Of a stretch of 64,000 bases of DNA, positions 830 through 62,121 are shown piece after piece. Each line of letters begins with the position of its first letter. Position 1 is the first letter of the stretch. This stretch comes from Psammoneis japonica. Taxonomy: Eukaryota. Under the pieces are notes generated by a model. That model did not search any database, was not told where the DNA came from, and saw nothing but the letters and a program-made list of their open reading frames with translations. Both the position numbers and the translations under genes were made by a program. The DNA lies in NCBI GenBank assembly GCA_008632985.1, contig QPGO01000003.1, positions 186,001-250,000 on the forward strand. Direction: 5' to 3'.

Positions 830-2290
830 ACACACCACGAGAATCAGAGTGGCTTTTCAGACTGTTGCCAATGCCTTCAACAAAACCAATGCTGTTGTCA
901 TTTGGAATGAACATGCATTGCTTGTTTGATGGTTGGCAATCGGCGAATCGTTGCAGGAGCGCACTGCTTCGTCATGTGTCAAGAAGGAGCAGCCTTGCAT
1001 CTCAAGCAGGGCTTGCTGTTGCAATTGCACCATCTCAAGTGCTGTTGTGCTGAGGCACCTCACACACCTGGCTTGTTGGCCCAGACTCTCTCCTTTCAGC
1101 ACACCTTGTGATGTCACTTTGCGTTGTCATCATGTCTGAGCTCCTCTGCCATGCCGCACATTCTTGCGACCCCAAAAAAGGCACCTGCCATGTGCTTCTT
1201 GCACTCTGGCTGTTGCACATGTGCACCTGGTGGCCAACCTGAGGCAAGCATCCTCTGCACTGTTTTTTTCTTCACAATTGCTGCTGCTGCAAAATCTGAT
1301 GCTGTGGTCCAAAATGAGCATCTGTGCTTTTCTTCATGAACTGCTGGCTGCTGCTGCAGAATCTGATGCTGTGCAACAAGTCAGCCATCAATGAAAATGA
1401 CCACTGCAGCAGCTCTGCAGCTTCCACCTTCTCTGCTTGCCTTGCAAGCTGCAAATCCATCACTTGAATGCAGACTTAAAATGCAATGCCACCAGCATGC
1501 TGCAATTTTTGTTTCTTCCTTTGGTGCCCCTCTCTTCCTCCAATGCCTCATTGGTGCTGGTGCTGTCCACAGGCTTCCTGGAACAAGCACTTGATTGCAC
1601 AGGGTTCTTGCACTCCCATTTGGTGTAAGGCATGCTGTCAGATGCCTGTTTGCCCCAAAAACAAAGTGCTTGCAGAGCTCTTGGCAAGTTGCTTGTGTGT
1701 TTGCTGACCACCTCTGCTCATTTTTCCACCACCTTTTCCAAGTGCTCCATTGCTGTTTTTTTTTGTTGATGTTTCCCTCAGGCTTCCACATGTGTTTGCC
1801 CATCTCCAAAAGAATTCGGAACACTGTGTTAGAACTCTTGTCACTGGCTGTGTCTTTTGCAAGAGATGCTGATCTTTGTGGAGGTCTTCCCACAGGTTTG
1901 CAGATGTGTTGTTGCACCTGGGTGTTGCCTCCACCTCACTTGCATCTTGTTTGTCTGTGCTGGCCTTGTTGCTCTGTCTGCCCCACTGTTTGTGTCTTGG
2001 TGATGGTTTTTCTTGTTCGTTTGGATTGCATGCCCTCTTTTTCGAATTTTCATGCTGCTCTCCTGTTGCTCCCATTTTCCCAGAGAGAGCTGTGAACTTG
2101 CACACATTTGTTGCTCTGACGGGGAGACATTGAGCTGACACACTGGCTTGGCAGGGCTGTCGAAGGATGTTGGCTGGGAACAAGGAACTCATGTGTGTCG
2201 ACTGTCGACGGCGTGATTGTTGGCAGCAAGAAAACAGGCATGACCAGACAGAATGCATGGAATTGGTGCATCTCATCACATGTTGTTGCT
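830..2290. other. TpA-depleted degenerate sequence, origin unrecognised
   Basis: Only a few TA dinucleotides (e.g. about 1477, 1626, 1830) in about 1.45 kb; TG/CA-rich; many overlapping Cys/His-rich spurious ORFs. Confidence 0.75.
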
Positions 2291-2579
2291 GTCAACAGGC
2301 TAGCGCTTCTGTTGCATTGGTGATTGGAGCTGCTGAAGAATCTTCAGTCATCAGTCATGATGCTTCTCGAGAACAGCGTTTGTTGGTAGATTCGGATTTT
2401 TGCTGTGCTCCTTATCTGCGGTTTTGTATATTCTTAAATGTTCCGTATCTTTTTTGTGCAATGATCGCGAACGCGAGCGAATCTTTTTCTCTTTGCTGCT
2501 TATTCTCATCATCATTCATCATACTATTCACCTACTACCTACTCTCTTATTTCTGATTCATACACAGAACAACAACACC

Positions 2580-4076
2580 ATGACAACCTCCGCACCGCCC
2601 ACGACGTGGAACACGAAAATCGTTTGCACGCTCGGACCGGCGTCATCCACAGATGAAACATTGGAGCAGATGATTGTTGCGGGGATGGACGTTTGTCGTT
2701 TGAATTTTAGCCACGGAGAGCATGCGTCCCACAAGGAAACCTTTGATCGGATTCGTCGCTTATCGGCCAAGTACGACAACCAAGTTGCCATTCTGTGTGA
2801 CGTCCAAGGACCCAAGATTCGAACGGGAAACATGGAAGCGCCCTTTGAAATTTACCGCGGAGACACGATTCGCGTTACTCCCGACGAGATTCTGGGCAAC
2901 AAGCAGCGCATCCAAATCAGTTACCAAACCATGCTGCAAGATCTTCATGTCGGTGATGTCATTTACATTAACGACGGCATCATCAAGCTCGTTGTGGTCG
3001 ATAAGGATGAGCCCGAGAACGATTTGATTTGTGTCTGCGAGGCTCCCGGCAGCATCTCTAACCACAAGGGATGCAACCTGCCCTCGGGAAACTTGTCCGT
3101 CAATGTGGTGACACCCAAGGATTACGCCGATCTCGAATTCATTGCCGGTTTGGATCCCGAGTACGTCGCCGCCTCCTTTGTCGGGTGTGCCGAGGACGTT
3201 CGACAAGTTCGGGCCCGTCTCGTGGAGTGCGGCAATCCCAACATCAAAATTATTTCCAAGGTGGAGCGTCCCGTGGCACTCGAAAACATTGACGAGATTA
3301 TTCAAGAAAGCGACGGCGTCATGGTGGCGCGGGGTGATTTGGGAGTCGAGATTGCTGCGTGGGACGTTCCCACGTGGCAAAAGAAAATTGTGGCCAAGAG
3401 CAACCGCGAGAGCAAGCCGGTGATTGTTGCGACTCAAATGCTCGAAAGCATGACGGAAAACTCCCGCCCGACGAGAGCCGAAGCCAGTGACGTGTACAAT
3501 GCGGTACTGGATGGAGCCGATGCCGTCATGCTCTCGGGCGAGTCGTCCGTCGGCAAGGACCCCGTCAATGCCGTCCGGACCATGGACAATATTGTCAGTG
3601 TCGCACAGGACCACATGCCCAAGCGCGATCCCAATGACTTTGATTCGTCCGTCCAAGCCGTCACAGAGACGCTTTGTCACGCGGCGTACTCGATTTCGAG
3701 TGAATTTATCGACATCAATTTCAAGGGAAAGATTGTCGTCATTACAAAGACGGGCAAAGCCGCGAGACTTATTAGCAAGTACCGGCCGGCGCTTCCCATG
3801 CTGGCCTTCTCCGAGTCCTTGCGTGCCGTCCGGGAATTGTCCTTGTCTTGGGGGGTTCGAGCGCACCATTTGCCGCAAATTCTAGGCCTTCCTTTGGAAG
3901 AACGGGCCCTCAGAGCCATTGAAACGGCCTGCCAGCTCCAGTACCTGAGTGCGGATGACACCAAAGTTTGTGTCTTATCGTCTTCCCTGTACAATTCGAA
4001 ATGCCAGGGGTTGGGATACTTCACAGGGGTCTATGACGTGTCGGAATTGGTAAAGGAAGGCCTCATTGACATCTGA
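2580..4076 (+). CDS. PK: Pyruvate kinase (498 aa, intronless)
   Basis: TKIVCTLGPAS, RLNFSHG, DVQGPKIRTG, IISKVE, DGVMVARGDLGVE, ATQMLESM, PTRAEASDVYNAVLDGADAVMLSGES; first ATG at 2580. Confidence 0.97.
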   Translation: MTTSAPPTTWNTKIVCTLGPASSTDETLEQMIVAGMDVCRLNFSHGEHASHKETFDRIRRLSAKYDNQVAILCDVQGPKIRTGNMEAPFEIYRGDTIRVTPDEILGNKQRIQISYQTMLQDLHVGDVIYINDGIIKLVVVDKDEPENDLICVCEAPGSISNHKGCNLPSGNLSVNVVTPKDYADLEFIAGLDPEYVAASFVGCAEDVRQVRARLVECGNPNIKIISKVERPVALENIDEIIQESDGVMVARGDLGVEIAAWDVPTWQKKIVAKSNRESKPVIVATQMLESMTENSRPTRAEASDVYNAVLDGADAVMLSGESSVGKDPVNAVRTMDNIVSVAQDHMPKRDPNDFDSSVQAVTETLCHAAYSISSEFIDINFKGKIVVITKTGKAARLISKYRPALPMLAFSESLRAVRELSLSWGVRAHHLPQILGLPLEERALRAIETACQLQYLSADDTKVCVLSSSLYNSKCQGLGYFTGVYDVSELVKEGLIDI

Positions 4077-4223: not shown

Positions 4224-4400
4224 CTCTACTCTCTAGAGAGTAGCTAGCTAGTAGTAGGTGGCCAATTGCTGCGTCATCTCGCATTGGGTTATCAGGTTAT
4301 TATTTCCCGCAACCTTTTCTGAGATGGTCGTGCATCTTCTTGCTCTCCACTCTAACTCTAGAGCTAGAGAGAAGAGAGAGGGACACCTCTCTAGAGTGGA
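4224..4400. repeat. CTAG/TAG/GA-rich low-complexity tract
   Basis: ctctactctctagagagtagctagctagtagtag ... ctctaactctagagctagagagaagagagag. Confidence 0.7.
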
Positions 4401-4547
4401 GCAGGTGGGCCCCATCGGCAACTGCTCGCCACCGCCAGAGCAGACAGAGAGAGCGGCGGAGAGTCCAGTTGTAGAGAGCATGTCTCGCACTTGCGCTGTG
4501 CAGCCCATGACTCTCACAGAGCATCAGAGCAAGTTGCCAGAGTGCAA

Positions 4548-4650
4548 AACGTTTTGTGCCCTGAAATTGATCTTTTGCATGCCCAGGAGAGGGAGAAAAA
4601 AGTGCAAAGCCACATGGGTTGATCCAGAATGTCTTGCAACCATCCGCACC
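4548..4650 (+). repeat. About 100 bp dispersed repeat, TpA-mutated copy of 13571-13680
   Basis: tcttttgcatgcc...gagggaga...aaaaagtgcaaagccaca...gatccagaatgtcttgcaaccatc aligns with aaaaagtacaaagccaca...gatctagaatgttttgtaactatc. Confidence 0.85.
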
Positions 4651-4729
4651 GCATCATGTGTTTGCTCCAAGCCCAGCATGTCAAGTTGCAGAGCAAACCA
4701 CTTTGCCCATTTGGCAAAACAATTCCGCT

Positions 4730-5880
4730 GATCCATGTTCACATTTGCAAACATTGTCTCCCTCATTGTCCCTGCAGTGCCATTGACATTTACTTTCACA
4801 AGTGATTTTGCCACCACTTGCTTTTGTGCACAGACAACTGCCCCTGTCATGCTCACAGAAACCTCCACAGCTGTCGCCATCCAGTTCAATGCAGGCTGAA
4901 CATTGGGTTTTTGCGTGTTTGCACAAGAGGAAGTTTTTGCCATTGCAGCTTGCTCAGAGCAAATGATGTTTCCACCACGTGCCGCCTTGACTCTCACAGC
5001 AGCAATCACAGCTGCCTCCTTGAAAGCAAACAAAAGCTGAACATTCTGATTCAGCATCTTCGCACAAAAGGAACTCTTTGCCATTGTGGCTTCTGCAGGA
5101 TGGAGACTTTGTGCTGTGTTTTTGGGTGGAGGCAGGTGCCAGCTAGAATTTCCAACTGAGCAAGATCAAATGTTGTCTTTCAGTTCATTGCTGCATTTTG
5201 TTGGCCCTTTGCTCAAACAAGAATGACCTGCATTTGTTCTTGCCAAGATGCAGTGCCAGGCTTGCTTCACGCAAAAGCCATCACTGCTGTTGCCATTTAA
5301 TTTGACAGAAGCGGTGCACTCATTTTGGCTTTCATCTTCATCACATCAGAGGAAGCCATTTCCACATCCAGTGCCACACAGTGTCGAGGGTGTGAACGAC
5401 GTTGCTGGGCACTTGTTGCAAGCTGGCAGACAAGCCTCGCATCCAGACAGAGCAAAGCCTTCGGCATTCTTGCTGCACTCCGCAAGAGGACGGTTCAGCC
5501 TCCAGGTGTTTGCAATTTTTGTGACAAAGAAAAAAATGTCTTGCCCAATCTTTGTCATCTTGACATTCAATGCTGTCGGTTGCTTGGAGATTTTTGACGG
5601 AACAGGCATTGTTTTGTGCTGGTTTGCAGGATTTGGCACAGGATGAATCACAGAGTCAAAGTGGATGGTGCCGCCGTTTGTTTTGAGACTCTCGTGAAAC
5701 TGCATTTTCCACACAAGAGGGACAACCGTTGAAGGCGGATGCAGAGTTGTTCTTCTCATCCTGCCCAACAAGCTTGCACGGCGTGCCGGGATTCTTTGCA
5801 AAAAACTTGCACTTCATTTTTGAACCATTCTTCTTGCAGACCCACTCATCATTGTGACCCTTGTTTGTCCTGGTGATGGA
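4730..5880 (-). pseudogene. Degenerate tandem duplicate of the 3' Cys-rich part of the subtilisin gene (copy of about 5950-7240)
   Basis: ttgtttgtcctggtgatgg at both 5861 and 7222; WVCKKNGSKMKCKFFAKNP vs WVFKKNGSTKKCRFVAKNP; GCEACLPAC vs GYEACPVAC; broken by stops and frameshifts. Confidence 0.85.
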
Positions 5881-5949
5881 CCATTTGATCATTTCTAAAA
5901 GGAGCATCTGCAAATGTTGTCGTCTGCCCCGGCAGCGCTCTGGACGATT

Positions 5950-8900
5950 GGTTTCGCAAGTGATTTTGCGGCCGTTTTCTTGCGCAGAAAGACAGCTGCC
6001 CCCGTTGCACTCGCAGAAATGGTCAAAGGTGTCGCGGTCTAGTGCAACGCAGGCTGAACATGCGGTTTCCGTTTGTTCACACAAGAGGAAGTTTTTGCCA
6101 TTGTGGCTTGCACAGGATGAAGATTCCACCGAGCATGTGCAAATCTTATCTTTGGCTCTCTCTCTGCAAGCCTTTCCACTGTGGCACGTGATTTCACCAC
6201 CGTTTGTTTCAGCGGAAATACATGCACCGCCTTGACTCTTACAGCAGTCATCACAGCTGTCTCCTTCCAAGCAAAAACACAGGCTGAGCATTCTGTCTCC
6301 GTTTCCTCACACAAAAGGAAGTCTTTGCCATTGTGACTTCTACATGACAGAGGCTTCTTCGATGACGCCGGCGCCAGAGGAGCTGTGTTTTTGGGTGGAT
6401 GTGGTGGCGGGGGCTCAAGAGAACATCCATTCCAGCACAAGCAGACATTGTCTTTCAGTTTGTCACTGCACTTTGTTGGCCCTTTTTCCGTGCACGAATC
6501 ACCTGCATTTGCTCGTGCTGAGATGCAGCATCCGCCTTGCTTCGCACAAAAGTCATCGCAGCTGTCACCATTTAATTTCACAAAAACAGTGCATTCATTT
6601 TTGCTTTCATCTTCTTCACATGGGAGTGTGCCGTTCTCACATCCAGTGCCACACAGTGTCAACGGTGTGAACGACGTCACTGGGCACGCATTGCAAGCGA
6701 CCGGACAAGCCTCGTAGCCAGACAGAGTGAAGCCTTCCGCATTCTTGCCTGTTGCCCCGCAAGAGGACGGTTTTGCCTCCAGGCATTTGCAATCCTTTCG
6801 AATGAAGAAAAAACATCCCACCCAATCTTTGTCATCTTGACATTCAATGCCATCCGTTGTTGTGAGAGGTTTTGACGGAGCAGGCGTGGGTGATGCTGTT
6901 GGTGCAAGCGTTGGAGAATTTGTGGGTGTCGTTGCAGGCTCATTTGTCGGATGCGACGTAGGGTGAATCATTGGAGGTGGAGTCAAAGCGGATGGTGCCT
7001 CCGTTTGTTCTGAGACCCTCGTGAAACTGCATTTTCCACACGAGAGTGGACATCCGTCGAAGGCCGATACAGAGTTGTTCTTCTCATCTTGCCCGACAAG
7101 CTTGCACCGCGCGTCGGGATTCTTTGCCACAAACCTGCACTTCTTTGTAGAACCATTCTTCTTGAAGACCCAGTTGCCATCGTTGCTGCATTTGAAAGGT
7201 ACCTTTTCTGTGCTGTGAGCCTTGTTTGTCCTGGTGATGGTCGGGGTGTCAGTGGCAGATGTTGTTGGGCGTGACGTCGGCGCTCGGGATGATGGAGCGT
7301 GGGTCGGGCACTTGGTCGGGGCCGACGTTGCTGACATTGTAGGGCGTGACGACGGCTCTCGAAGTGATGGAGCGTGGGTCAGGTACTTGGTCGGGGCCAA
7401 CGTTGCTGTTCTTGTTGGTGCCGATGTTTCAATGACATCATTTGTCAAGCAAGTCCCACACGTCAGTGGACAGGCCTCGTAGCCACATGCATCATTTCCA
7501 AAAACGCATCTGTTCCGATTAGTTGGCACCGCGATTCAGATTTGATTTTAAATACCTGCATGGCTTGCTCACCCCGGCTTTCGTTGTAAAGATCCAGAGC
7601 TTATCATCGATACACTCGTCTTTTGGTGCGGGACGAAACTGCGTTCTTGTTTCTTCTCCCGACACCGTAGATAGTGTCGCTGACGTGGGTGTTGGCGACA
7701 TGGACGGCACAAAAGTCGCGGGTTCTCCCGAAGGTGCCGGCGAAGGAGAGGAAGATTCTTCAATTTTCAAACCAAACCTGACTTTGTCCATGGGCCCAAA
7801 ATTCCCACCTTTTTTCTCCAGTTTTCCGTCAAAGTAAACCGAGTAACGTCCTTCGCCATAGTTGCAACAGATACCGTCGTTCTCGCGGTCTCGAATGGTA
7901 AAGGTGTATCCGTCGACTGGCAAGCACAATCTGGTGATGATGGTCTTCTCACTCCGAAGCCCATAAGCAGATTCAATGACGTCGTTCTTGGAATTCGTTA
8001 GAATCCAAGACGTTTCCTCCCCCCACTTATCGGTCGTCAGATTAAACATAAAGACCTTATCTTCGCAAAGGAACTCCGTCGGTGAAGGTGTTGGAGGTTG
8101 GGTGTAAAGAGGATCTTGCTTGCAACCACCAAGCCCTCCATTCGAGAGTGGCTTTGGGGATTCGCCGCCGGCTGAACATCCATCGAGCTTCAACCGATCA
8201 TAGGCTTCCCTTGCTTGGACCATCCCAAATCCGGACTCTGTGTCGCAACCGGATTCTTGTATATCCTTAGCAGTTCGTATTAACGTTTCTGATTTGGTGG
8301 TTCGAGCATTCTTCAAAGTGAGACCACAACAAGGCAGCAATGCCAGCTACAAATGGCGTTGCCATGGAAGTGCCTTTTCTCCGAGAGAAACAACGGAGAA
8401 ACCAATGAGACCTAGTGCATAACGTTTAAAATTAACTCATTCATCTGCAGACTTACCACTCCAGCTATCATAGCCATACTCTGCCCCCCCAAACTTTGGC
8501 ACTGTAGAAACAATGTCGATTCCTGGTGCAGCAATCTCCACTTGATCGTTGTACTGAGAGAATTGTGCAACTGTTTCATCCGGTCCAGTTGCTGCTACCG
8601 ACATAACGGAAGGGAAAGATGCTTGAAAGGCGTATGATGTGTCGCCTGCATTCCCAGAAGCAGCAATCAATAAAACACCTTCGTCGTATGCGGTTTGGAA
8701 TGCATTGCGAGCTACGTCACTTGTTTCGTCTCCTCCAATACTCATACTTATCACCTTGGAACCGGCCGCGATACAACCTTTGAGTGCCTTCAAGACAAGG
8801 AATTCAGATCCATCACCCCGCGCGTCCAAAACTTTTGCAATATGGAAACTGAAGCCTGACATGTTTCGTAGAACACCCGCAACACCAATGTCGTTGTTTC

Positions 8901-9597: not shown

Positions 9598-10017
9598 GGG
9601 CGATTTAAAAAAATAGTTCCGTCAAATGAAGAGTAGAGATGAAGAACAGCGGATCTCTGTGTATCGCATCAAGAAAAAGGAGGAGGGCAAATATGAAAAA
9701 ATTGTGACTATCGAAATCTCAGAAGTGAGAAAATGTCCCATTTAGAATGACTTGAGCAGTGCCGGCCGAAAGAGCATCAGGCAGGTAGGCAGGGGCAATA
9801 ATTTGAAACTGTGACTCCTTTTTTCTATTATTTGTATCCGTGAGAGTCATCAACCACAGACACTTTGGACATCGAGAGGGTTACTGTAAATCCATTAACT
9901 GGTCGCTAACGACGGACCAAATTGCTCACATCATTGTGTGGCATGCTCTCACAGTTGTTTGATCAAATCTAGAAAAGCTTTGCCCATGCAGGCATTGAAA
10001 TGGGATCTCATTGACTC

Positions 10018-12896
10018 ATGAATCCATCTCGCATCCAACGACATCAACTCCTTTTTGTCGCCGTGTTCTCGGCGTCAGTGTTGTGGGCCAAAGGCACAAA
10101 TCCCTGTGTCGACGAGTGCGGGACAAAAGAGCGCTTCTGTGGAGAGACATCGTCAGAGTGCACCTTTGCTGTCAACTTGGGTGGTGACAGCTGCAATGAC
10201 TTTTGTGGGCGACATGGGGGGCGATGCATCACCACCAAAGCTGCTGGAAGTTCCAGTTGCAACACAAAGGGCGCGAACTCTTGTTCTCATGGCTGCAAAA
10301 ACAACGCGTGTGTGTGCTCACTTCAAGACGTCACCAAGGGAGGCAACCAGCCTCCGAAAGAAGAAGAGGCCAAAGTGACTGCTCTAACACCCTGTGTCAA
10401 ACAGTGTGGTGAAGAAAGTTCACTGTGCGAAGAAACGTCGCAGCAACGTTCCTTTTGTGTTGTTTTGAAAAAAAGGAGTTGTGGTGACTTTTGCGAACAG
10501 CATGGCGGCACTTGCTTGGAAGCGCGGGTGGCATCGGAAGCTTCCTGCACAGCACGTGAAACCAACTCTGAGATGACTTTTGCGTTTGCACAAGAAACGA
10601 AGCGCATGCACCATCTCCCACCCCTGGTCCTGCACCACTTCCTGCGCCCTCTCCCACGCCGCAGTCACCTCCAGATCCGACTGGGCCACCTGCTCAGCTT
10701 CCGACATTTCAGCCAACAGAAAAATCAATGGATTGTGTCGACGTTCCACAAGGTTGGCATGACCCTGATGGCGAGATCTGCAATTGTGCTTGGCACAGTT
10801 TGGATGACAACTGCAAAGAATGAGGAGATTTCTTTGAAAATTTTGGAGCCACGGCGAGTGCAGCCTGCTGTGGATGCGGTGGAGGGAACCTTCTGTCAGT
10901 CGATGGGATTGCACAAACGCCATCCCCGACGCCACGGCCTTCGCCACTGCCGACAAGCAGCCCTGCCCTCTCTCCCACTGCAGCTGCACCAACAGCCAAG
11001 CCGACCGACTGCCCTGCCATGGAATCAACAGCCAAGCCGACGAAAGGACCAACACGGGTTCCAACGAAGGCGCCCTCATCCAATCCGACTGAATTCCCAA
11101 CCCTGGAGCCATCAGCCAAGCCGACGCGAGGTCCAACACGAGTTCCGACATTGCCTCCCACGAGTTCAACTGTTTCACCGACACCAGTGCCAACGCTTGC
11201 TTTGACAACGCGTCCAACCTCGACCCCTACGAAGGGTCCGACTTTGACGCCATCAAATCCTCCTACTGCTCAAACACATGATCCGACGGTGCGTCCGACT
11301 TTAGCCCCAACTCTTTTGCCAACCGCAACGCAAACAACCAATCCTACAGTGAATCCCACACAGTCCCCTTTAGCATCAGCAACATCATCTCCGACCCAGA
11401 GATTGACGCCAGTTCCGAGTAGGAGACCAACAGCCTTCTCATCAAACAATGACCCTCCCCGCGCTTATACGGCGTATCCCACTCTTGCGCCAACAAATGC
11501 ACCCACGATCCTGATACCAATGGACGCCGGTGACGACGATATAAAAGGACAGGGTTCTTCAGAACCAGGATCCTTGAGTGTTGGTAGGGCGTGCTCGAAA
11601 AGTAATCAATGCAAGTCATCGACTTGTCGAAGTGGCGTTTGTATGGCGTCGCCGGCTTGCTATCCAATCAAACACACGTTTGGGAATCCATTCCACAAGA
11701 ATAAGATCAACATTGTGTTTGTTCCATCCGCATTCGCTTCATTTGGTCATGATGCTTGGCATGATCACGTCAATAAGACATATGGATTCATGCAAAACTA
11801 CAACATGTTTGCAGAAGATATCGACGAGCTCAACGTTTTTAGGGTGGATCCTTTGAATCTCGATGAGTCATTTTGTGCATTGGGATGTCAGGGATTCGAC
11901 CGACTCTTGTGCTGCGACGTAAAACGTACCCATGCGTTGGCCAGCAAGTGCTTCCCTGTCGGACCTAATCTTCAAACTGCTGTCATTCATAGCTCAAGGC
12001 AATATGGTGGTGCAGGATACACTAACGCAAACATTGCTACGGCGACAATGCATCCTGCCGCCCCTCTCGTATTAGTACATGAGCTTGGTCACTCGCTCTT
12101 TGAGTTGACCGATGAGTACTCGTACGGAGAAGGAAGTGCCTTTGAGGCAAATTGTGATTCTAGCAGATCTTGCGAGAAATGGTCAGACCTCATGGAGGAA
12201 AATTACAGACCGAAAGGTTACGAAAGAGTGAAATGCATTCCAGGATGTGAGGATGGGTACTACTTTGTTGGAGGCAAGACATTCATGAATGACTTGAGCG
12301 CTCCCGTTGGAGCGGTCAATGAACGGTTTAGTTGCTGTACATACTTGGCGTTGACGAAAAAGTTCCCTTCCTACTGTGATGTTTTTGATCCGTCCCCAAA
12401 CTATCTCTTGAACTATTGCAAGAAGGATTACCAAAACTATGGTGCCTCAAGCTACGAAAGTGAAGAGGTCCTTGCCATACCGGGGTACACAAACAATGAC
12501 AAGGCCGACGCTAAATACATGAGAGTGGTAGATCCAGCAATGGTGACAATTACATCCACAACAAAGCGCTCGGGGGTCACGGTATTCCGAACAAAAACAT
12601 CTCAATTAGAAACTGGAATCTTTCCTACGTCTCAGGTCAAAGGCGACTTTGTTAATCCAAGAGCCGCAATGAAACAAGGAGTAGATTCCTTGTTGAAAGT
12701 CTTGGTCTTTTATACAAGAGGAAAAGACACGCTGTTTGTTTCAAGAAAAATAACCATTGAAATACCCCCGCCTCCTCCCAACAGCACAACATTACAAGGA
12801 GTCCCTCACAGTGTTTCCGATGAACCCAATGTTTTCGAGTTGGTCTTGGACACCAAAGGACGGGCTGTAAAGAAGATTCGTGTCAAGGCAATCTGA
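10018..12896 (+). pseudogene. M64 metallopeptidase copy A: signal peptide, two Cys-rich modules, CxDxPxGWHD module, PT linker and intact M64 domain (ORF 11019-12896); 5' part TpA-mutated with a nonsense codon
   Basis: YGGAGY and HELGHSLFELTDEY motifs; TGA at 10821 where paralog B has TAC; frameshift near 10560. Confidence 0.8.
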
Positions 12897-14685: not shown

Positions 14686-14921
14686 GGTGCTAGTAGTAGT
14701 TGTTTGTTTGTTTCGAGTGTAGTAGAACGTTTAGAAGACGAACAACAATGTGTACAACAGCACCAACAAACAAAGAGCCTCTTGGTGCTGACGCTGTGAA
14801 CTGAGATTTTCGATCTTTTTCCACCTGCTTCCGACAACGTACATTTCTACGTGCTTCTGGTAGTCGTTCCAAACGTGTGGTGGATTGATTCTTCTCTGTT
14901 TGACTCGAACGGGCGACCGAC

Positions 14922-15010
14922 CGACAGTCAGACAGACAGACAGTCAGACAGACAGTCAGACAGACAGTCAGACAGACAGTCAGTCAGACAGTCAGACAGA
15001 CAGTCAGACA
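14922..15010. repeat. Minisatellite (CAGTCAGACAGA)n / CAGA-based
   Basis: About 7 tandem 12-bp units visible, at the left edge of the large TpA-depleted domain. Confidence 0.9.
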
Positions 15011-16191: not shown

Positions 16192-16225
<34 letters not shown>

Positions 16226-17700: not shown

Positions 17701-17749
17701 AGCTAACCCACACTCCCAGCACACAATGTGCGGCAGGAGCGCACAACAA

Positions 17750-27887: not shown

Positions 27888-27891
27888 AAAG

Positions 27892-46537: not shown

Positions 46538-48468
46538 CGGGGACCCCCCGTAAGTCTGTACAACCATCCGATGGAGCATTTTTTGCGAGTTGAACGCAAC
46601 TCTTCTCGTGTTGTCACCGCGACAACCTTCCTTTGAAGTCTGTTGCATGCCAACCTTGTTGTGGCTGTCCTGCTGGTGATCCTTTTCGATAAATCGTTTA
46701 TTCTACTCCTGTTGCTGATGTTTAGTGAAAAGGATCACCAGCAGAAAGTGTTTTGCAACAACAACAATTGCACCTCAATGTCGCCGTCACCAACCAGCAG
46801 CGACACCCCAAACGCCTCCAAGCCGACTCAAATGGAAGAAAAAGCCGACGAACAGAAGCATGCAATCCCGGTGGATGATGCATGGGGCCAGCATGGAAGA
46901 AAACCAGGGTTTCAGTGCCATGGGCAAGTCGCAAAACATCAATGTTCCTTGTCAGTGTTGCGCCAACGTCTCGCATCTCACAAACGTTCGTTTGGTCGTT
47001 GCAACTGTCCTGCTGTCAACACTTTCATATAAGTCGTTTTTTCTGCTCCTGTTGGTGACGTTTGATCGAAAGGATTGACAGCAGCAGGTGTTTTTATGAC
47101 AACAATTGTTTGTCTCTATGTCGCCGTCGCCAAGCCAGCGACACAAAAAACGCCTCCACCAGGTCACCCAAATGGAAGGTGAAGCCGATGGAAAGAAATG
47201 AAGGAAGAGGCGCAAGCAAGAGACACAGAATGCCCTAAGCTGTTCCTTTGTTGATGGAGAAGTTTTGAATGTGAAAATCACCACAAGCTCTGTCTTTTGT
47301 GGATTGGTGGCAAAAAACAAACACGCATTCAGTCAGAGGCGCCGGAAACAAAAAAGGAAAGTCAAGATGTCTCCTGTGGGACATTCACAATGCCTGCCCA
47401 TCAGAGAATGACAGTTTAAGGGTTTGAAACATGGTCTGAGCTGGGACAACTGCAACTAGAAACACTGCTGTTTGTCAGCATGTGCAGCATTCGCCGTGAC
47501 TCCACATTCTAGGTTTTGTTTCTGCAACTCTCATTCTAGGTTGTGTCCAACAGAAAGACTCCACAGAGCATTGCGTTGGTGTCTTACAATGGCAATTGCT
47601 GCAGTGCTTGAGCAACTCCTGCACAGAGAAACACCCAACACACCAGTCGTGCTGCGTTCTCGCTGGTGGGCTTGACTCCGGTCATTGTCGAATAGAAACA
47701 CTCTACAAAGCATCACATTGGTGTCTTGTGATCATGTGTGAACAGTTGTTGCTGTGCTCAAGCAACTCCCACACAGAGAAACCGCTCTCAAGCGTCATCC
47801 TGCCGCATGCCGGCACGCAAGGGCATGCTGCTCCACCGCAGCTCATTTGCAGAAGCAATCGACTGATCAACCAATTTCTCACCCGATTCTTTGGATCCGC
47901 CATCATCAACAGTCTCGGAATCTGACTCAATGTGACGTGTTTCCGAATTGCCAGAAGCATCGGGAGAAGCACAACCTTTGTTCTTCTTGCGTGTGCGAGT
48001 GGCCTGCTTCCGACAAAGTCTGAATTGCCTCCACCACTGCCGCGCCGTCCTTTTCCCTCGCATTGCTGAGGAGATGTTTGTCCCCAATCCTTTGAGGAAG
48101 ACACCCTTCAAAATTCTGTGCATCACAGCAACTGCATTGGAGTTCTTCACCCGCCAGAGCGACAGTGCAGTGGCACTTGCCTCTGCAGTCGTTTGCTGGG
48201 AGGGCAACTGAATTTGATGCGCCTTAGAGGCAGATGAGACATTGGACTTGTGGAGTCCTGGAAAGCCACCAGATTGCAGTGACTTCAGCACAAGGTCACC
48301 ATCCATCCATCCACATGGAACCGCAGCTGGAAAAGCGGCAATAAGAAGCCATGCGGCCTCGACAATCTCCATGGTTGGTTTGCTGTTTTTGTGACAAAAA
48401 AAATGTCACGCAGCAACCACGGAGCTGAAGGAGCCATGGACAACGCACAGACTTGCGGGGGGTCCCCG
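46538..48468. mobile_element. Non-autonomous TIR DNA transposon (about 1.93 kb) flanked by TTAA on both sides
   Basis: TTAA|CGGGGACCCCCCGTAAGTCTGTA (46538-46560) ... CACAGACTTGCGGGGGGTCCCCG|TTAA (48446-48468): 23-bp inverted repeats matching at 21/23; internal direct repeats at 46690-46860 and 47030-47200; no transposase recognised. Confidence 0.8.
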
Positions 48469-48479
48469 TTAAATGCGAA

Positions 48480-51400
48480 ATGCACGCACCATTGAATCAC
48501 GCTGACACGAGTTTGAGCACCCACGCCACCGAGTTTGTTGTGTCCAAACATGAAGCAGAACACAGGAAAAGGACAACAAGCAATGCACCTCAGTTTGGTT
48601 TTGCCCATTTGGGGTTTTCCCAAAATGGCCAGGGCAAGGGGAAGTCAACTTGTCCTTTTGGGAAACACCCAGGAAATGAGGGCAATTTTGTGGGAAGGAA
48701 TGCATGAAAGGGCTCAGGGGAGGGGAACAAAAATGAATGGAGTGCGGCAATGCACAGTGATTGCAGTTAGGCGGGTGTGCTTTTGTCCCCATGACGACTG
48801 ACCGAGTGACCGACGCATGACAATGACCACGTTGTTGAATGCATCGACACATCAACACAAAGCGAGCACCTTGTGGGGGAGTGAGGAAAGAAGAAACTTT
48901 GCCATTAAATCAGCCATGTTAGTGTTGCTTGTGTGCGAGGTTCTGTTTTTGCCTTGTCCTTTGCTGCTCAAGAGCCCCCTTGCGGTTTTTGCACTTGTGG
49001 CCAGCACGTGATGCTGACACACTGTGTTCTGCACATGAGGCAGGTCAAAGGAAAGAACATGCATGACCAGTCAATCCAACACATTTTTGTTGGCCTTGTG
49101 AGGCTGTGCTTTTGCCTTGGCCTTTGCTCTCTAGATGCCTCATGATGGCTTGCATTTGTGGCTGAGAGACAACAACAGAATGATCCCACATGACCCGCTT
49201 CATTCTGCACGCAAGATGTGTCAATTGGAAGAACAAGCATGACTGTTTCAATCTGCCACATTTTCATTGGCCACACACAGCTCTGCTTTTGCCTTGGACT
49301 TTGCTGTGAATGCTGCATGGCTTGCATTTGTGACTGCACGACAAAAGAACAAGTGTGCAGAGACCAATGCACTGGTTTTCTGATCAACATCATTGGCCAC
49401 ACTTCCACTTCATTCTATCTTTTACACCAGCCACAGATCACAAAGTCATTCACAAGATTGACTGGTGTCACTGTTGCTTGACAAAAGCTGTCACAAATGG
49501 GGTGCAAATGTGCCATGGTGTGTTGCCCATTTTTTTGTTGCAACCAGTCGATTGTCAATTTCCGCATCTGCAGAATGCACAGAAATGCACAAGAGGGGAA
49601 GCATGGGGAATCACCAATGCATTGGTTTTTGTTCACATGTGATGTGCATGTGTGACAAAGCATCATTTGTGCTTGCACAAAAGGTGGCAATCCCAGGGAA
49701 TTTTTGGGAGCCCCACAGCAAAACCAAACCAAGCAACACACAGCATGCTGAAAGAAGAGCTTGCTGTGGCCAACATGTGCATGCACAGTGCATGGAACAG
49801 CTTGTGCCAGGCAAGCACTGCTGTGTTGTTTGTCACAGATCTTGTGCAGGGCACACCAGAAGAACTTTGCAACACCTGTCCCTGACAACACCAGAGGCAG
49901 TTTTTTGACACACCAGAAGTGCAGGAAAAAGCACGGCAATTTCAGCCACAGCAGCACTGCAGAAATTGCAGGATTTGGCATCTTGCCATTGAGGTGCCCA
50001 CCAAGAGTCCCGCCAGATTTTTTTTTGCTGGCAGCAAGCCCAATTGCTCACATCTGGACACCATTGACATGTGGCATGCCTGGAAGTCAATGCTTGCACA
50101 TTGCACATTGCTTTGTTGCATTGAGTTGTGGCATGTTTGAAAAGTGTGTGTGCTCTGCACATGAAGCTGTGCTCAACATGAAGAAACTGTGCTCAACTGC
50201 ATGCCCACAAATGTGGTTGTTGAGATTTCAAATTTTCCATTGCTTGTCAAAGTGCAATGACAATGGTGATCATGAACGCAATGTGCTCCATCAATGACCA
50301 CAAACTCACCATGATGCTGACATGTGTGGACAGCTTGCATTTAATTTCATGTGTGTGTGCCTTGCCGGCTTTGAAATTGATTGATCACAGTGAAAAGAGC
50401 TGAAATGTTCAATTTTTTGCCAATCACTTTTTGACTGCATGAGTCAACAACAAGCCCATCACACTCTCATCATGTGCCAAATCTGCCATGCATGAGTTCA
50501 TGAGATGCAATGTGCTGTTGATTGTTGTGGCTGTTGAAGGTGACACCATTGAAAAAATGGCAACAGCAGAGTTGCCATGGCAAGGTGATTTCCATGGTTT
50601 CCAACTGCAGCACACCTGCAGAAATTTGCACTGAAACTGAGTCATGCTTGTTGAGAGTTGGCATGGCTGCGCCACTTTGCACATCATGCCCCCACCATTT
50701 TCTGAGTTGAAGGGCCGGCAGAAAAATGCAATCATGATTCAGCCAGAAAAACAATGACTGGGGCCAAGAGCTCATTTTCCATGTCCCAAAAAAATGCTTC
50801 TGTTGTGAGCATGCCAGGCAATTTGCTCAGAGAGAGTGTGCCTTGCCCCCCTTGGACCATGTGCCGCCCACCACTGCTCTGTGACTTTTTTGCCAAAAAA
50901 TGCAAGGACATGTTCCAGCCCCAGGTGGGAGCTAACAGCACTGACGTGTGACACAATTGTTTTTTGTCATGTCATCTGTCACATGTTTTGCATGTGCTCT
51001 CCCACAGATTTGATCCAGACTTGCTGTTTTGCAAAGCCCCAGACATTTCATTTGACAAATTTGTGGGAAGAACAATGCGCCAGGTGCATTCTTCAACATC
51101 TGAGGAGCACTCCAGGCTGCCAAGCAAAAAATGCAGTGCTTCAACCATGGGCAAGTTTGTGCATTTGCAAAATTGCCTCTTTTTCTGTTGGCAATCATCA
51201 ACACATTCACTGCCTGGTGATTTTTGGTGCTGCCGAGCTCACATGCAGAATTTTGTGGGCCCAATGTCACACGGATTTCTGCCTTCATCTGGAACATGTT
51301 TGAGCACACCCAAGCAAGTGTCAGCCCACACAGTGTTGCTTGCTGTGTTTTGACTTTGACTGTCATTTTTGTGCTTTTTGCAATGCTGTTGACACTTTTC

Positions 51401-51800
51401 AACAAGGGCTTCATTGTGGCATTGGTCGTCTTGATTCCTTTTTCTTGTTCATTCGAGCTTCAGTCATGAGCATGACACTCACAATGTGAACAATCACTGC
51501 AATGAACAACACATCATAAAATTTTCACTCTTGTGTGAAACTGGGTGTGTGCGCGCCACACCCAAGTCTGGAACAAGTTTTCGCATGGGCGCCGTGCGAG
51601 CTGAGTTGTGAGGGAAAGCTGGCTGGGTGTGGGTGCAGCTGATGCAGCCATGTTTTTTCCGACACTCTCACTTTGGGGTTTTGCACAGCAAGTGTGTTTT
51701 CCTGTTTTGCGTGACAAGAAGAAGACTGGTGTGATTTTTTGTGAGTTGTGGGTCGGTCGCATCATTCCTGCACTGGATGTCGTTGCCCTCAAGCCTGCGT
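48480..51800. other. TpA- and CpG-depleted degenerate sequence with an imperfect repeat pair (about 49070-49165 and 49248-49340)
   Basis: Very few TA, TG/CA-rich; tgcttttgccttgg..tttgct...atggcttgcatttgtg.ctg occurs twice. Confidence 0.65.
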
Positions 51801-52230
51801 CATTGTAGGATGCTATTCGTACAAATTCTACATACATGATCTTTGTGTAGAGTCAGTAATGCTGACATCCATTCTGTTGGGATTGATTCATCGTCATCGT
51901 GAAGCTCACGTAAAAAAGACACAAAATTTGCATACGTGGCAGGTCGTAGTTCCATGGGTATGACTGTGTTCATACTCTTATACTCTATTGACATTTTCCT
52001 TCTGATTTCTTGGTACAGATACATCATGAAATGTACGTATGTATCACTAAAAGAGATAATTTCTAAACATTACGACCAACAGCCACGACACAAAATTTTT
52101 CGCACAAAACCGGGATCGCGTCGACGATATCTTTCGACTTGTGCGGTTGGTGTCATAAATCCCGGCCGTTGTCGCTGTTGACAGCAAAGACCGTTTCTGT
52201 TGTTTTTTTTGCTCTATCAACAGCACTACC

Positions 52231-54964: not shown

Positions 54965-56560
54965 TGCACAGTGAATCAGAGGGGAAGATAAAGTGGCAGT
55001 GGAAGGAGCAGCAGAGTGCAATGCCCCCAAAGGTGAGAGCTCCATCAAATCAGGGATCAACTGCCACAAAAGTCCCACCCCAAACAAGAATCCACCCACT
55101 CAAGCTTTGAATTTGAAGTCCTGGATTTTCACATGCTCTTGTTGTGGAAGGGTTTTTCAAAAGAACAATTAAAACAATGTGGCAAAAAAAAAGAATGTGG
55201 CCAACAGCTTTCATGCCTCCAGAAAGTGATTTCTCCTTTGCCTGTCTTTGTCAATCAATTTTTGCACATCCACAACAAAGTTCTCCCATTTTCCCACATG
55301 CCTCAGGAGCAAAGAGTTGTGCTGTGCTTTTTTTTCTGCCAATTGCCAGCTGCCATGCAACAGGCTTTAGATCTGTCAATGACACCAAGCAACTGTGAGA
55401 AAATGAATTGTCCAGCACTGCTCCACTCTGGCAAACTGGGCTCTGAGTCTGCACCTCTTTCTGAGGTGCCTTGGCTGGCTCAAGACTTGCAAGTGCATGC
55501 TTTCTCAAAGGACTGGGTCACATGCACCATCATGGAGATGAAAAAATGACACTCAGCACTGGTTGGAGGAAAGTGCCTGGAGCACAAGAATGCTGCTGAT
55601 GGAGGAGCCAGCTGCTGGCACAAAACTGCGCTTGAGTCTGGTGGCCACATGCTTGCATCTGCAGATCCTTGGCTCAAACTCAGGCTGCAATGTTGCAGCC
55701 ATGTGAAGCTGTGGTTTTTTGATCTGCATTTGGTGCTTTGCAAGCCTCTGCAAGGGGAAGATCTGTGTTGAACTTGTGAGCTCTCAGGAAGCTGCACAAA
55801 AGACATGTGCGCCAGCAAACTTAGCTGCAAGGGGAAAAATCACAGCTGAAAGACTTTTGCACCAGCTGTTTGTGAAATGTGCAACAATGTGCACATGCAG
55901 CTGAAATGCAAAAAGTGCTGACAGCACCAAAAACAGCCCAAAACAAGCTGCCTGGGTTGCAAGTGACAAGCAACCTGCACGCACAAAACTGCAGCTGCTC
56001 GTGGTCGAGGTGCTTTGAGTCCTTGGCTCTGTTTTGTGCAAGAAGACACCAGTTGGGCAAAAGCAGCTTGTGAGAAAGCAAGATTGTTTTGCCATTTTGA
56101 GAAAGATGCCAGCCCAGGTGTGTGTGGCACAGCACGCTTGCAAAAGAGCAAAAAGCAGCTGCCTCGACAAACCAAGCAAAGGCGCAGCATGTTTGTGGGT
56201 GCAGAAGTGCAGATGCTCCTCTGCGCCACCATGCTTTTTTCTTGCACCCAACAAGGAGCCGTGCCAACAAACACCCAACAAAGCGCGCGCAAAGTGTCCA
56301 GACAAATTGAGCGCCAGCAGCGTCTGCACCACTCGGCTCAAACTGCATGGCTGCTGCTGCTTTTCTCAAATGTAATTCGAGCTGCATGGCTCAGCAGAAA
56401 CAGAGCCAGGCATGCTTCTTGCAGGATCAAAAGAGATGCCTGGCATGCTCTGCAGTGAAGCACACCTTGAAGGTGTCTGGAGTGGAGATGGCTTCGCTGG
56501 CATTTCTCCCAAACCAAAAGCTGCACGGCAGGGCCTCCAGCGCCATCGAGGACAGCATCT
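54965..56560. other. TpA- and CpG-depleted degenerate sequence, origin unrecognised
   Basis: About five TA seen in about 1.6 kb, lying between two normal-composition genes. Confidence 0.75.
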
Positions 56561-56794
56561 TCTTTCCTTTGCGAGTCATCAAAGAGTCATAAAGACAAAA
56601 ATGCATCGGAAAGAATTACGCCCACAAGGTCATGCAACGAAAATAATGACTTTGACATCCGCGGAATGGCATCATTTTTTCTATCACAACACATCGTGAC
56701 GGTTTAGCTTGTGGACCTCTAGATAGGAAACAAGATTGAGGTGATAGGTGCCAATGCATAATGCTGGTTCATCAGTAATCAAACGTTTTTCAAT

Positions 56795-60376: not shown

Positions 60377-60988
60377 CTACACCAGCCGTGTATCCATCAG
60401 CTCGTAGTCGGTCGTGCTATCCTTCGGCTCTGACATAGGAGGCATCTCCTTTCCAACAACATTTTCCGCTTGTTGCTCTCCTTGTTCCGTGCTTTCCGTC
60501 TTTTTCTTTTGTCTTGCTAGAATTGCCATGACAAAAAAGTAGGTATAAAACAACAATTCCACTCCCGACCAAACGAGAATTTCCCAACGGCGAATGGGTT
60601 CAGACCAAATCAACCATGCAATGCCTTCGACGATGTAGTAGAATGCAAAAACAAACTCGATTGTATTTTGCCAGACGTGACTCTTGTCGAACACCATCCA
60701 CAGGGCAGCCTCGCAAAACCACACAATGCAAACGACGAGATTAAAGGAAATGTAGTAATCTGATGCAAGCACATAACCTGGATTGGTTTCGGGAAGCCAA
60801 CCCAAGACAAAAAACGTGGCACTCAATGCACAGCAGAAGGCATTAATGTAAATCCATACGAGTGGTGCGTGTGGTGGCGAATAGGGTGCCAAAAAGGCTA
60901 GCTTGACTCGAAGCATTCCCGTGATGAGCTCGAGAAACGCAATAGCCGATGCGAACCATTCCTTGATGCTTGTTGTAATCATCGTCAT
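60377..60988 (-). CDS. Hypothetical multi-pass membrane protein (about 203 aa)
   Basis: ATG at 60988; 4-5 hydrophobic segments, then a basic patch (RQKKK) and an acidic tail; normal Tyr content. Confidence 0.65.
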   Translation of the reverse strand: MTMITTSIKEWFASAIAFLELITGMLRVKLAFLAPYSPPHAPLVWIYINAFCCALSATFFVLGWLPETNPGYVLASDYYISFNLVVCIVWFCEAALWMVFDKSHVWQNTIEFVFAFYYIVEGIAWLIWSEPIRRWEILVWSGVELLFYTYFFVMAILARQKKKTESTEQGEQQAENVVGKEMPPMSEPKDSTTDYELMDTRLV

Positions 60989-62121
60989 GCAGCGCGTTAT
61001 TTTTCGCCAACGCCAAGAACGTGGATCAATACAGTAAAAGCAACGATAAAATTCTTCAGGGATTGGACCACATTGGCGATGTTCCACAGAAGCAGCGGCA
61101 CATGCGAGGGGTGTCAGCGGCCAGCGACCGTCGAACGAAGTGGTATGGGGGCGGATCGGGTCGCGTTTTATTGGCTGATCGCGACTTAGCTTAGTGAATG
61201 AAGCATGAACACGACTCAGTCCATAAAAATAAAAAAATTCATATATATATATAACATAAAACGGTTGCAGTCTTGAAAAAGCCTTTGAGTCCCGCAACCG
61301 GCTCATGAGCCGACCGTCACCGCACGCAAGCTTGGCAACCCACTCTGTCTGAAACAATGGTGGCAACAGCCATCTAGAAAAGCAAAAAAAAACAGGAGAT
61401 TGCATTTGTCGGCATGACTTCGTGCCCGCCCAACGTGATTGATGCAATGAAAAACGACACTTGCAGGGACTCAATGTGGGGGGGCCTGTTTTCTGCCCCC
61501 AGCTCTAGACCAGATTTTTGCACGCAAAAGCAACGCATTTGGTTGGACATTGTGGCTGACATTCCCCAAAAGAAAATGCCACCTTTCATGTTGTGGGGAG
61601 CACACACACGTCAGTTGGCACTCGCTCTGGCCTCCGGCGCTGGCTTCATTGTTTTCGACCTTCCAAACAAACAGGAGCAACCAGCCTGATCAGAGAGTGG
61701 TGGCTGTGGATCTTGTCATTTTCTTCGCATTGCAACAACAATGTCACCAGCAGTGCTGCATGACTGATTCAAACGCATCGTACAAGCAGTGCTGTGAATT
61801 GTGGTCGATGAACTCAATTTACGAGTCATTTACATAATTATTATTTGTACTCGCGGTTGTGTTATTTCAGGTGGGGCTTAAGTACCACAATCTCAAAGTC
61901 ATTTGTCTCAACACTGTAAAATCAAAAGTCAACAGGAGCATTTATTTTTGATGAGTTTTGTTTGTGCGGGTTAAGACAACGAACAACAGCGGCGCGTTAG
62001 AGACTACCGGTACAACTTGCACTTTTGTAGCAAGGACAACCTACAAAATTGGCCATTCTCTGAGTCAAAGAGTCCCCATAGAACATACAACAGATACAAT
62101 TTCCTTGCAATCAAAAGGACA

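Follow-up and report, generated by a model that had tools for sequence, protein, structure and literature searches.

We analysed a stretch of 64,000 nucleotides from Psammoneis japonica (assembly GCA_008632985.1, contig QPGO01000003.1, positions 186,001 to 250,000 of the forward strand; hereafter the window, whose first letter is position 1) and found that half of it lies in sharply bounded domains that have lost nearly all of their TpA dinucleotides. Very likely these domains have undergone hypermutation at the level of DNA, in which TpA is converted to TpG or CpA (A:T>G:C on either strand) while neighbouring genes are left intact. The observation is confirmed, and it is a further case of a kind described in one 2026 preprint. 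A preliminary description of the window had proposed a targeted A:T>G:C change at TpA on both DNA strands, and this proposal is supported by the replacement of conserved Tyr residues by Cys or His in two transposons, by a pair of gene paralogues, by CA-against-TG discordance between tandem copies and by the balance of pyrimidine-purine (YpR) dinucleotides.

Over the whole window the observed/expected ratio (o/e) is 0.33 for TpA, 1.47 for TG, 1.46 for CA and 0.69 for CG. A profile in 500-bp steps gave TpA o/e values of 0.00-0.17 and TG/CA values of 1.4-2.25 within the domains that had been reported, compared with a TpA o/e of 0.4-1.0 in flanking genes and ordinary intergenic DNA. We then split the window with a two-state hidden Markov model (HMM) on TA occurrence. 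The six low-TpA segments sum to 32,973 bp and, with a small seventh one, to 33 kb or 51% of the window; they hold 127 TA, against about 1,330 predicted from the TA density outside (0.040 per bp over the remaining 31,026 bp). Pooled, the six segments have o/e values of 0.06 for TA, 0.44 for CG, 1.72 for TG and 1.71 for CA, whereas the remainder has 0.58 for TA and 0.98 for CG, and each segment individually has a TA o/e of at most 0.10. The longest TA-free runs reach 2,000 bp (29850-31850).

Domain 1 (764..2386) contains 4 TA (TA o/e 0.04, CG 0.24) and ends 194 bp upstream of the ATG of a pyruvate kinase gene at 2580; a Pfam scan of its open reading frames (ORFs) gave no family. Domain 2 (4393..7479; 18 TA, TA o/e 0.096, CG 0.62) has its right edge within ORF 6042-7535(-), and domain 3 (9971..11227) retains a single TA (TA o/e 0.015) with CpG almost intact (0.75). 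The largest, domain 4 (14862..35185), spans 20.3 kb with 76 TA (TA o/e 0.061, CG 0.43); its left edge lies 176 bp upstream of the ATG of a Band_7 gene and its right edge 34 bp before ORF 35219-35953. Just within that left edge stands a (GACA)n / GACAGACAGTCA microsatellite (14915-15010), at which the contigs of the public sequencing run X1 break. Domain 5 (46724..51805; 24 TA, TA o/e 0.07, CG 0.40) ends 426 bp upstream of the ATG of an RSN1-type channel gene at 52231, and domain 6 (54990..56589; 4 TA, TA o/e 0.039, CG 0.23) sits between the stop codon of that gene (54576) and an M64-like ORF starting at 56762. The edges are step-like and a few tens of bp wide, as where a TA gap of 289 bp is followed by TA sites at 51806, 51814, 51820 and onward, and they stop 35-430 bp from gene ORFs. 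The preliminary description had claimed domains nearly devoid of TA and rich in TG/CA, beside normal genes and with sharp limits; all of this stands, and the six HMM segments agree with its limits to within about 50-450 bp. It had also listed a seventh domain, which the HMM does not call; short as it is, this domain is real, with TA scarce at 61258..61780 (2 TA in 523 bp, about 21 expected, Poisson P = 1.7e-7).

Depletion in the low-TpA segments is limited to TA and CG, and enrichment to TG and CA. GA (o/e 1.01) and AT (0.84) are not lowered to a comparable degree. The mass balance is a deficit of 1,203 TA and 886 CG against a surplus of 1,170 TG and 946 CA, and total YpR density is the same inside and outside (0.2456 versus 0.2448). 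As these books balance, transitions at TA and CG steps account for nearly all that sets the segments apart from the DNA around them. GC content is 50.2% in the segments and 47.3% outside.

The direction of the change was polarised on a long interspersed nuclear element (LINE) retrotransposon and on a Copia (RVT_2-type) retrotransposon, both in domain 4. The LINE (17789..23504, minus strand) is nearly full length and aligns to residues 13-1929 of a 1,934-amino-acid relative in three pieces, with two frame shifts. We scored codons that are covered by 20 or more long relatives (of 38 used) and on which at least 60% of them agree. At these codons none of 16 conserved Tyr residues is kept (8 Cys, 6 His, 1 Phe, 1 Trp), compared with 294 of 353 other conserved residues (Fisher P = 2e-12). 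The reverse transcriptase (RT) piece, compared with 150 relatives, likewise keeps no Tyr at 13 sites (5 Cys, 4 His, 2 Phe, 1 Leu, 1 Asp), while 8 of 10 conserved Phe and 5 of 5 Trp remain. A change from Tyr to Cys corresponds to A>G on the coding strand and one from Tyr to His to A>G on the opposite strand; the two outcomes are interleaved along both elements. The RT ORF has 2,795 relatives at E<=1e-3 and 229 at E<=1e-30 in a HMMER library search, and a word-based homologue search with the endonuclease ORF returned nothing at E<=0.001. Pfam nearly misses the element (18230-25667(-)) despite the 229 close relatives: Exo_endo_phos is found at E 1.4e-5 and, with the threshold at E<=5, weak matches to RVT_1 (E 0.063) and zf-RVT (E 0.035), because Tyr and the TA-containing Ile/Leu codons have been lost.

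The Copia element (28340..32151, minus strand) is degenerate and carries an internal deletion, so that nothing in it corresponds to residues 150-718 of its relatives. Polarity was assessed against 53 relatives of at least 1,300 amino acids, out of 120 listed. Conserved Tyr is kept at 0 of 38 sites (23 His, 10 Cys, 2 Trp, 1 Asn, 1 stop, 1 Phe), 4 of the 38 being repeat counts that come from a triplication, whereas other conserved residues are kept at 545 of 803 (P = 1e-18). Examples are NAHLQAP at 30013-30033(-) and CEVKFPDGEVKEH at 31614-31637(-), for which the consensus of 40 relatives reads NAYLQAP and YEVEFPDGQVKEY. The preliminary description had noticed both peptides and had claimed that conserved Tyr positions read as Cys or His, as is the case at 14 of the 16 LINE sites and 33 of the 38 Copia sites.

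The triplication within the Copia element (30131..31369) consists of 413-bp units. All three copies have the Cys/His states in common, and copies 1 and 2 differ in 7 places, 4 of them of the type CpG<>TpG/CpA; the triplication therefore took place after TA loss, with CpG decay continuing later. We also collected related Copia loci from metagenomes. The 73 loci kept from 394 relatives, in a search that favoured intact copies, have TpA o/e values of 0.44-0.99 and none lies below 0.4, even at a CpG o/e of 0.05-0.36; five of them (L066, L038, L058, L039 and L013) combine a CpG o/e of 0.05-0.31 with a normal TpA of 0.56-0.81. CpG decay without TpA decay thus seems to be common in related elements elsewhere. 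Two further public records resemble the window in their loss of Tyr. Across 43 columns of conserved Tyr, P0335, a 1,362-amino-acid Copia protein on a 17.4-kb ENA contig, reads Cys in 25, His in 5, Tyr in 9 and a gap in 4, and is strongly one-sided in favouring Cys over His; P0214, a LINE fragment on a 14.1-kb JGI contig, contains 0.44% Tyr, and its 10 conserved Tyr sites include 3 Cys and 2 His. Since both bear the mark of Tyr loss, the process is present in at least some other public records.

CpG decay of the kind driven by 5-methylcytosine (5mC) has also left its signature in the domains, in the CG o/e of 0.44 versus 0.98 already given. Conserved Arg in the Copia element is kept at only 16 of 46 sites (9 His, 8 Cys, 7 stop, 4 Gln, 2 Trp), and further changes of CpG type are Ala>Val (9), Ser>Leu (8), Pro>Leu (6) and Thr>Met (4). 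Within the low-TpA segments TA and CG o/e are correlated (rho 0.55, 64 windows), from which it follows that both losses accumulate with time in the same state. CpG decay runs alongside TA loss in these domains as a slower process of its own, and the two are separable. TA loss is the faster because the LINE has no conserved Tyr left, although 83% of its conserved residues, and conserved Arg at 17 of 24 sites, are still in place. CpG decay was considered as the cause of TA loss and was ruled out by domain 3, where TA was lost with CpG counts of 32 versus 33, and by the CpG-poor Copia relatives with normal TpA.

A pair of paralogous M64-like genes records the change within host sequence. Copy A has a hypermutated 5' part (10725..11227, plus strand), which makes up the first 500 bp of the gene copy and belongs to domain 3; its unmutated counterpart in copy B (36815..37343, plus strand) was taken as the reference state. 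In the pairwise alignment the 12 TA sites of B correspond in A to TG at 8, CA at 2, TC at 1 and a gap at 1, so that none is kept and 10 of the 11 aligned sites have become TG or CA. The earlier claim that duplicate pairs reveal the direction is thus upheld by 10 of the 12 sites. Tyr codons of the Cys-rich motif CVDVPQGWHDPDGEIYNCAWYS...KEYG now read Cys, His or stop, and CpG is unchanged over the same part (32 versus 33). As no third paralogue covers the Cys-rich part, the polarity there was read from the Tyr codons and their coding sense. From 11228 onward the TA sites of A and B are mostly shared, and differences between TA and TG/CA are symmetric (8 versus 7). The switch from mutated to unmutated sequence occurs between 11015 and 11228, within about 200 bp and in the middle of a homologous segment.

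In domain 2, Cys-rich and PT-linker modules are encoded by tandem units, each about 1.28 kb long. Alignment of the two units (4700-5900 and 5860-7230) over 1,189 bases gives 75.6% identity, and double differences in which CA stands opposite TG occur at 27 sites, with every other class at 6 or fewer. Such discordance is the pattern that would be expected if an ancestral TA or CG had been converted independently, on one strand in one copy and on the other strand in the other. A copy of the module in inverted orientation lies in domain 3 (10093-10557), across a subtilase ORF. The inverted copies of the Cys-rich part, 6258-6632(-) and 10093-10479(+), are 31-38% identical in amino acid sequence and flank the subtilase ORF (8437-9621(-)); an inverted repeat of this kind could give rise to a hairpin RNA and thereby act as a silencing trigger. 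We found no strand-coordinated tracts in the low-TpA segments, where the variance of the TG-CA skew is 1.8 compared with 2.0 outside, and the clustering of TG and CA by strand does not exceed that of normal DNA (runs-test z of -1.5 versus -3.5). Because both strands and DNA other than retroelements are affected, the process works on DNA where it stands, and only within the domains. The direction of the change, its restriction to TpA, its use of both strands and its action after insertion and duplication have all been demonstrated in the window.

The recognised content of the domains is of three kinds, namely the LINE, the Copia element and the Cys-rich/PT-linker modules of host type. About 29% of the low-TpA sequence is recognisable transposable element (TE), about 12% is host-gene-like repeated modules and about 59% is without annotation. 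Pfam searches of the 142 ORFs of at least 98 amino acids in these segments returned the LINE endonuclease as the sole match of TE type, with a few unrelated others below the cut-off; outside them, no TE family was found among ORFs of at least 200 amino acids. The statement in the preliminary description that the transposons all lie in such domains is correct for both recognisable ones. Its wording that transposons and repeats are the targets holds for the LINE, the Copia element and the repeated modules, and has to be widened, as a duplicated gene is also hit over the first 500 bp in one of its copies.

Given TpA hypermutation, we lean slightly towards a targeting that is guided by chromatin and not by homology. 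The presumably silenced repeat domains (LINE, Copia, unannotated relics and host-type modules) have very likely been hypermutated in place at TpA, to near completion; under such a scheme they would be heterochromatic or carry 5mC-methylated chromatin, and the mutator would be drawn to them by the chromatin state or by small RNAs, and not by homology itself. The TEs of diatoms are methylated at CpG, as passages in PMC2806351 report. The outcome is the destruction of TE genes, with every Tyr codon lost, TA-containing Ile/Leu/Val codons altered and TAA/TAG stops removed.

The best surviving alternative, which we nevertheless regard as unlikely, is that homology triggers the process as in fungal repeat-induced point mutation (RIP), with a threshold of length and identity and perhaps confinement to a sexual stage, and that chromatin has no primary role. 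All recognisable low-TpA content is indeed repeated (LINE, Copia, the tandem 1.28-kb modules and the inverted module copy), and 1,200 contigs of run X1 match 9001-29000 at 90% identity or more, the LINE having many relatives there. The paralogues argue against such a trigger. They share about 2 kb, with an identity of 76-99% per 100 columns over 11306-12500, and the boundary of domain 3 cuts through the middle of the homologous segment. A tract of 400 bp (11706-12106 versus 37822-38222) is 97-99% identical and keeps its TA, with 60-86% identity on either side. This tract looks like a recent gene conversion, which could account for its retention of TA under a homology trigger. Stretches such as 25581-28275 assemble as a single contig without variants, which also speaks against a homology trigger.

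As to chemistry, adenine deamination is the candidate to which we give most weight, and still only tentatively: adenine in DNA would be deaminated to hypoxanthine, which is read as G, and a TadA/ADAT2-like enzyme might carry out the reaction. The tRNA target of such enzymes, A34, as far as is known always follows U33, which would explain the T-A context. TA sites that remain in the domains provide a further view of the context. Their survival by 3' base, set against normal DNA, is 108 of 516 for A, 78 of 536 for G, 47 of 766 for C and 21 of 678 for T. Relative to normal DNA, TTAA is over-represented 5.2-fold, CTAG 3.0-fold and CTAA/TTAG 2.7-fold, whereas ATAT and ATAC/GTAT are at 0.1-fold; RTAY is nearly erased, and YTAR has a survival 3-5 times as high. 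From this, an A with a pyrimidine on its 3' side seems to be the preferred site of conversion. The base preceding 42 Tyr codons was compared with the Cys or His outcome, and the association had the predicted direction (odds ratio 2.9) without being significant (P = 0.16).

The same outcome could be reached from the thymine side, if a JBP/TET-type dioxygenase or another T-modifying enzyme, acting in silenced chromatin, marked the T of TpA as 5-hydroxymethyluracil (5hmU), 5-formyluracil (5fU) or a derivative, and if mispairing or repair errors then led to T>C. At the palindromic TpA, T>C and A>G cannot be told apart by sequence, so that all of our results fit either chemistry equally well. 5-Formyluracil mispairs with G, and the hydroxymethyluracil of dinoflagellate DNA favours TpA. 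None of our results gave evidence of such bases or enzymes in diatoms, and the 2026 preprint favours adenine deamination, as a proposal (10.64898/2026.01.13.699255); we therefore consider thymine chemistry improbable, and somewhat more so than a homology trigger.

We next considered whether the sequence itself can be trusted, as a modified base in the domains might mislead sequencing, base-calling or polishing. Contigs built from the k-mers of run X1, with a depth of 24-62, reproduce the TA-free stretches exactly or nearly so: there are 0 differences from the window in the 2,695 bp of 25581-28275, 0 in 16355-16987, 0 in 28255-28759, and 1 difference plus 1 gap in 14954-16172. Assembly or polishing error is excluded by these contigs. 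A modified palindromic TA would, moreover, yield conflicting TG and CA reads according to strand, and not one clean state, and the changes behave as inherited mutations, being common to the three 413-bp copies and discordant between older copies. An artefact of this kind is thus very improbable, even though the library type of run X1 is not on record. Among eight of the differences between the LINE region of this copy and other copies in run X1, 3 are TA<>TG and 4 are CG<>TG/CA. The stretch is represented in one public study, with no RNA listed for it; run X2 has no cover over 15004-29000, from which we draw no conclusion.

Error-prone repair of the Pol-eta type (WA>WG) in methylated chromatin, which the preliminary description had suggested, does yield A>G after T. 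WA also includes ApA, however, and this dinucleotide is not depleted (o/e 1.20 in the low-TpA segments versus 1.16 in the remainder); ApG rises only slightly, from 0.88 to 1.02, and the YpR mass balance leaves no room for a large flux from AA to AG. The suggestion is accordingly abandoned as having very little chance of being right. A still smaller chance attaches to RNA-level A-to-I editing of transposon transcripts by an ADAR-like or TAD-like enzyme, fixed by reverse transcription and re-insertion. ADARs are a metazoan family. Both strands are changed within one element (8 Cys and 6 His in the LINE, 10 Cys and 23 His in the Copia element), DNA that is not of retroelement origin is affected with an in-place boundary inside a gene paralogue, and tandem copies have diverged by CA-against-TG changes after duplication, all of which editing of transcripts fails to explain, even if such enzymes do prefer U before the edited A (10.64898/2026.01.13.699255). 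Editing of single-stranded cDNA before integration was likewise ruled out by the both-strand changes, the paralogue boundary and the discordance of tandem copies. That the elements are TA-poor by nature, or through selection against TA, has nothing in its favour beyond the composition itself and is practically dismissed by the TA o/e of 0.44-0.99 in Copia relatives elsewhere, by the replacement of conserved Tyr at 54 of 54 polarised sites (16 + 38) at the cost of the proteins, and by the like change of a host-gene segment relative to its own paralogue.

Several points weigh against domain-restricted TpA hypermutation and the mechanism proposed for it. The evidence is an accumulated signature in a single 64-kb window, and with about 59% of the low-TpA sequence unannotated, the word repeats is established only for the remainder. 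The link to chromatin comes solely from the co-located CpG decay. Our control with Copia relatives favours intact copies, as one search pattern contained Tyr and the ranking acted in the same direction. Run X1 may be the source of the assembly itself, in which case the match of the reads is not independent. The preference for the 3' base was derived from surviving sites, some of which are possibly back-mutations, and the polarised test did not reach significance. Finally, the +1 preference derived here (T>C>G>A) is unlike the known A34 contexts of ADAT2 substrates.

To our knowledge, only cytosine-based mutational genome defences were known until 2026, namely RIP, APOBEC and methyl-CpG decay, and the preliminary description had known of no described mechanism for a loss of TpA. 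This no longer holds. According to the 2026 preprint, this hypermutation from TpA to TpG/CpA was caught as it happened in mutation-accumulation lines of the rhizarian Bigelowiella natans: of the 231 mutations recorded in two viral insertions, 230 changed A to G or T to C, and each of these lay at TpA; the rate was about 6e-7 per site per generation, within a range of about 1e-7 to 1e-6, and only part of the lines was affected (Mettrop et al., bioRxiv 10.64898/2026.01.13.699255). Its authors further report 324 low-TpA coding sequences enriched in RT and DDE domains and 124 TpA-poor clusters in the B. natans genome, and propose a role in genome defence and an ADAT2-like DNA deaminase, a candidate whose sequence has HxE-PCxxC and an Asn that is associated with DNA editing (10.64898/2026.01.13.699255).

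All features of the B. natans-type signature that can be checked by sequence are present in the window. As in B. natans, TpA becomes TpG or CpA on both strands and locally, not genome-wide; the changes are nearly only A>G/T>C transitions restricted to TpA, seen here through Tyr to Cys/His, the paralogue pair and the YpR balance; TpA has been depleted in the long term with enrichment of CpA and TpG, and our values (TA 0.06, TG/CA 1.72/1.71) fall within the thresholds given in the preprint; and selfish DNA is targeted, in the form of the LINE and the Copia element here and of RT/DDE sequences there. The two cases differ in that our host is a stramenopile (a diatom) and not a rhizarian, and in that the process is known here from its accumulated signature alone, whereas new mutations were observed in B. 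natans. Depletion is near saturation here, with an o/e of 0.06 over half of the window, compared with a Rho of 0.45 reported for the giant-virus insert of B. natans. The targets in the window are the LINE, the Copia element and repeated gene modules of host type, with no viral insert recognised, and CpG decay is co-located with TpA loss, of which the Results and Discussion of the preprint, as far as consulted, make no mention.

Other known systems are less close. RIP in ascomycetes and TCG-type hypermutation in some basidiomycetes resemble the present case as in-place transition hypermutation that inactivates transposons on both strands in a dinucleotide context, with sharply bounded compositional domains beside normal genes and a leak of a few hundred bp into adjoining sequence. 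RIP, however, is a C>T change at CpA that creates TpA and lowers GC, whereas here TpA is destroyed, CpA/TpG rise and GC is higher inside the domains than outside. RIP is also triggered by duplications of a few hundred bp at about 80% identity or more, and no such dependence is evident for the 2-kb paralogue pair. We know of no link to RID or DIM-2, and the lineage differs from that of the fungi with RIP. Methylation-driven CpG decay of silenced transposons shares the loss of CpG and the gain of TpG/CpA in the same domains but cannot remove TpA. Restriction by ADAR (of repeat RNA) and APOBEC (of retroelement cDNA) is likewise a base-editing hypermutation against selfish elements, and ADAR likewise prefers U 5' of the edited A; both act strand-specifically on RNA or single-stranded cDNA before integration, in contrast to the changes on both strands of resident chromosomal DNA, including DNA that is not of retroelement origin, in the window.

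It is tempting to speculate that RIP-like editing of adenine (or thymine) at TpA is an old defence shared among stramenopiles, alveolates and Rhizaria (SAR), or at least one that diatoms also have, and that it saturates every silenced repeat domain faster than methyl-CpG decay and under the guidance of chromatin; we would put this somewhat below even our tentative preference for adenine deamination. If true, its enzyme would stand as the first eukaryotic example of a natural editor of DNA adenine that is directed at transposons, and such an editor with a TA context would be of interest for base editing. The diatom case would place the process in a second major eukaryotic lineage, which is ecologically weighty and includes some transformable species; it would show transposons, beyond viral inserts, as the main long-term targets, and would offer a clean anatomy for experiments, with step-like edges, a 3'-base preference and a separate CpG decay. 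A search of open-access papers in PMC and of bioRxiv found no report of the TpA signature in diatoms, and only the B. natans preprint carries it. The passages on diatom TEs in Maumus et al. 2009 (PMC2806351) contain no hypermutation or dinucleotide bias, the consulted parts of a 2025 preprint on diatom TEs (10.1101/2025.10.24.684338) contain nothing on the TpA signature, and those of a paper on P. tricornutum's mutation rate (PMC6604790) mention no TpA effect or hotspot. There are practical consequences as well, since the domains hide transposons from protein-family scans (Pfam E 0.06 for the LINE RT versus 2,795 relatives) and produce spurious long ORFs in six-frame scans: with TAA and TAG erased, 264 of the 413 ORFs of at least 70 amino acids in the window fall in the low-TpA half.

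The genes outside the domains are long uninterrupted ORFs and include pyruvate kinase, a subtilase, Band_7, a SET-domain protein, the RSN1-type channel and several M64-peptidase-like proteins with PT linkers. Among named relatives, those nearest to the pyruvate kinase all come from diatoms (Synedropsis sp., 72% identity; Helicotheca tamesis, 69%; Ditylum brightwellii, 66%; Thalassiosira sp., 61%), the top match overall has 74% identity and no match reaches 100%. By protein similarity, too, the host is therefore a diatom and not Bigelowiella. The M64-peptidase-like genes with PT-repeat linkers form a local family at 10824-12896(+), 37663-39027(+), 44567-46039(-), 56762-59218(+) and 62584-64000(+). 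The SET-domain ORF (39838-40710(-), Pfam E 4.9e-5) occupies gene-rich DNA that separates two depleted domains, with no link to the hypermutation shown. Over part of the subtilase ORF (9083-9557) run X1 contains a second contig at about 40% of the local depth with about 26 differences, and run X2 shows that variant only; the second contig is either an allele or a close paralogue. Two short tandem repeats have normal TpA, a coding repeat of 108 bp within an M64-like ORF (57908-58234, 3 copies, 86% matches) and an intergenic one of 136 bp (44279-44531), and short tandem repeats as such are therefore not targets.

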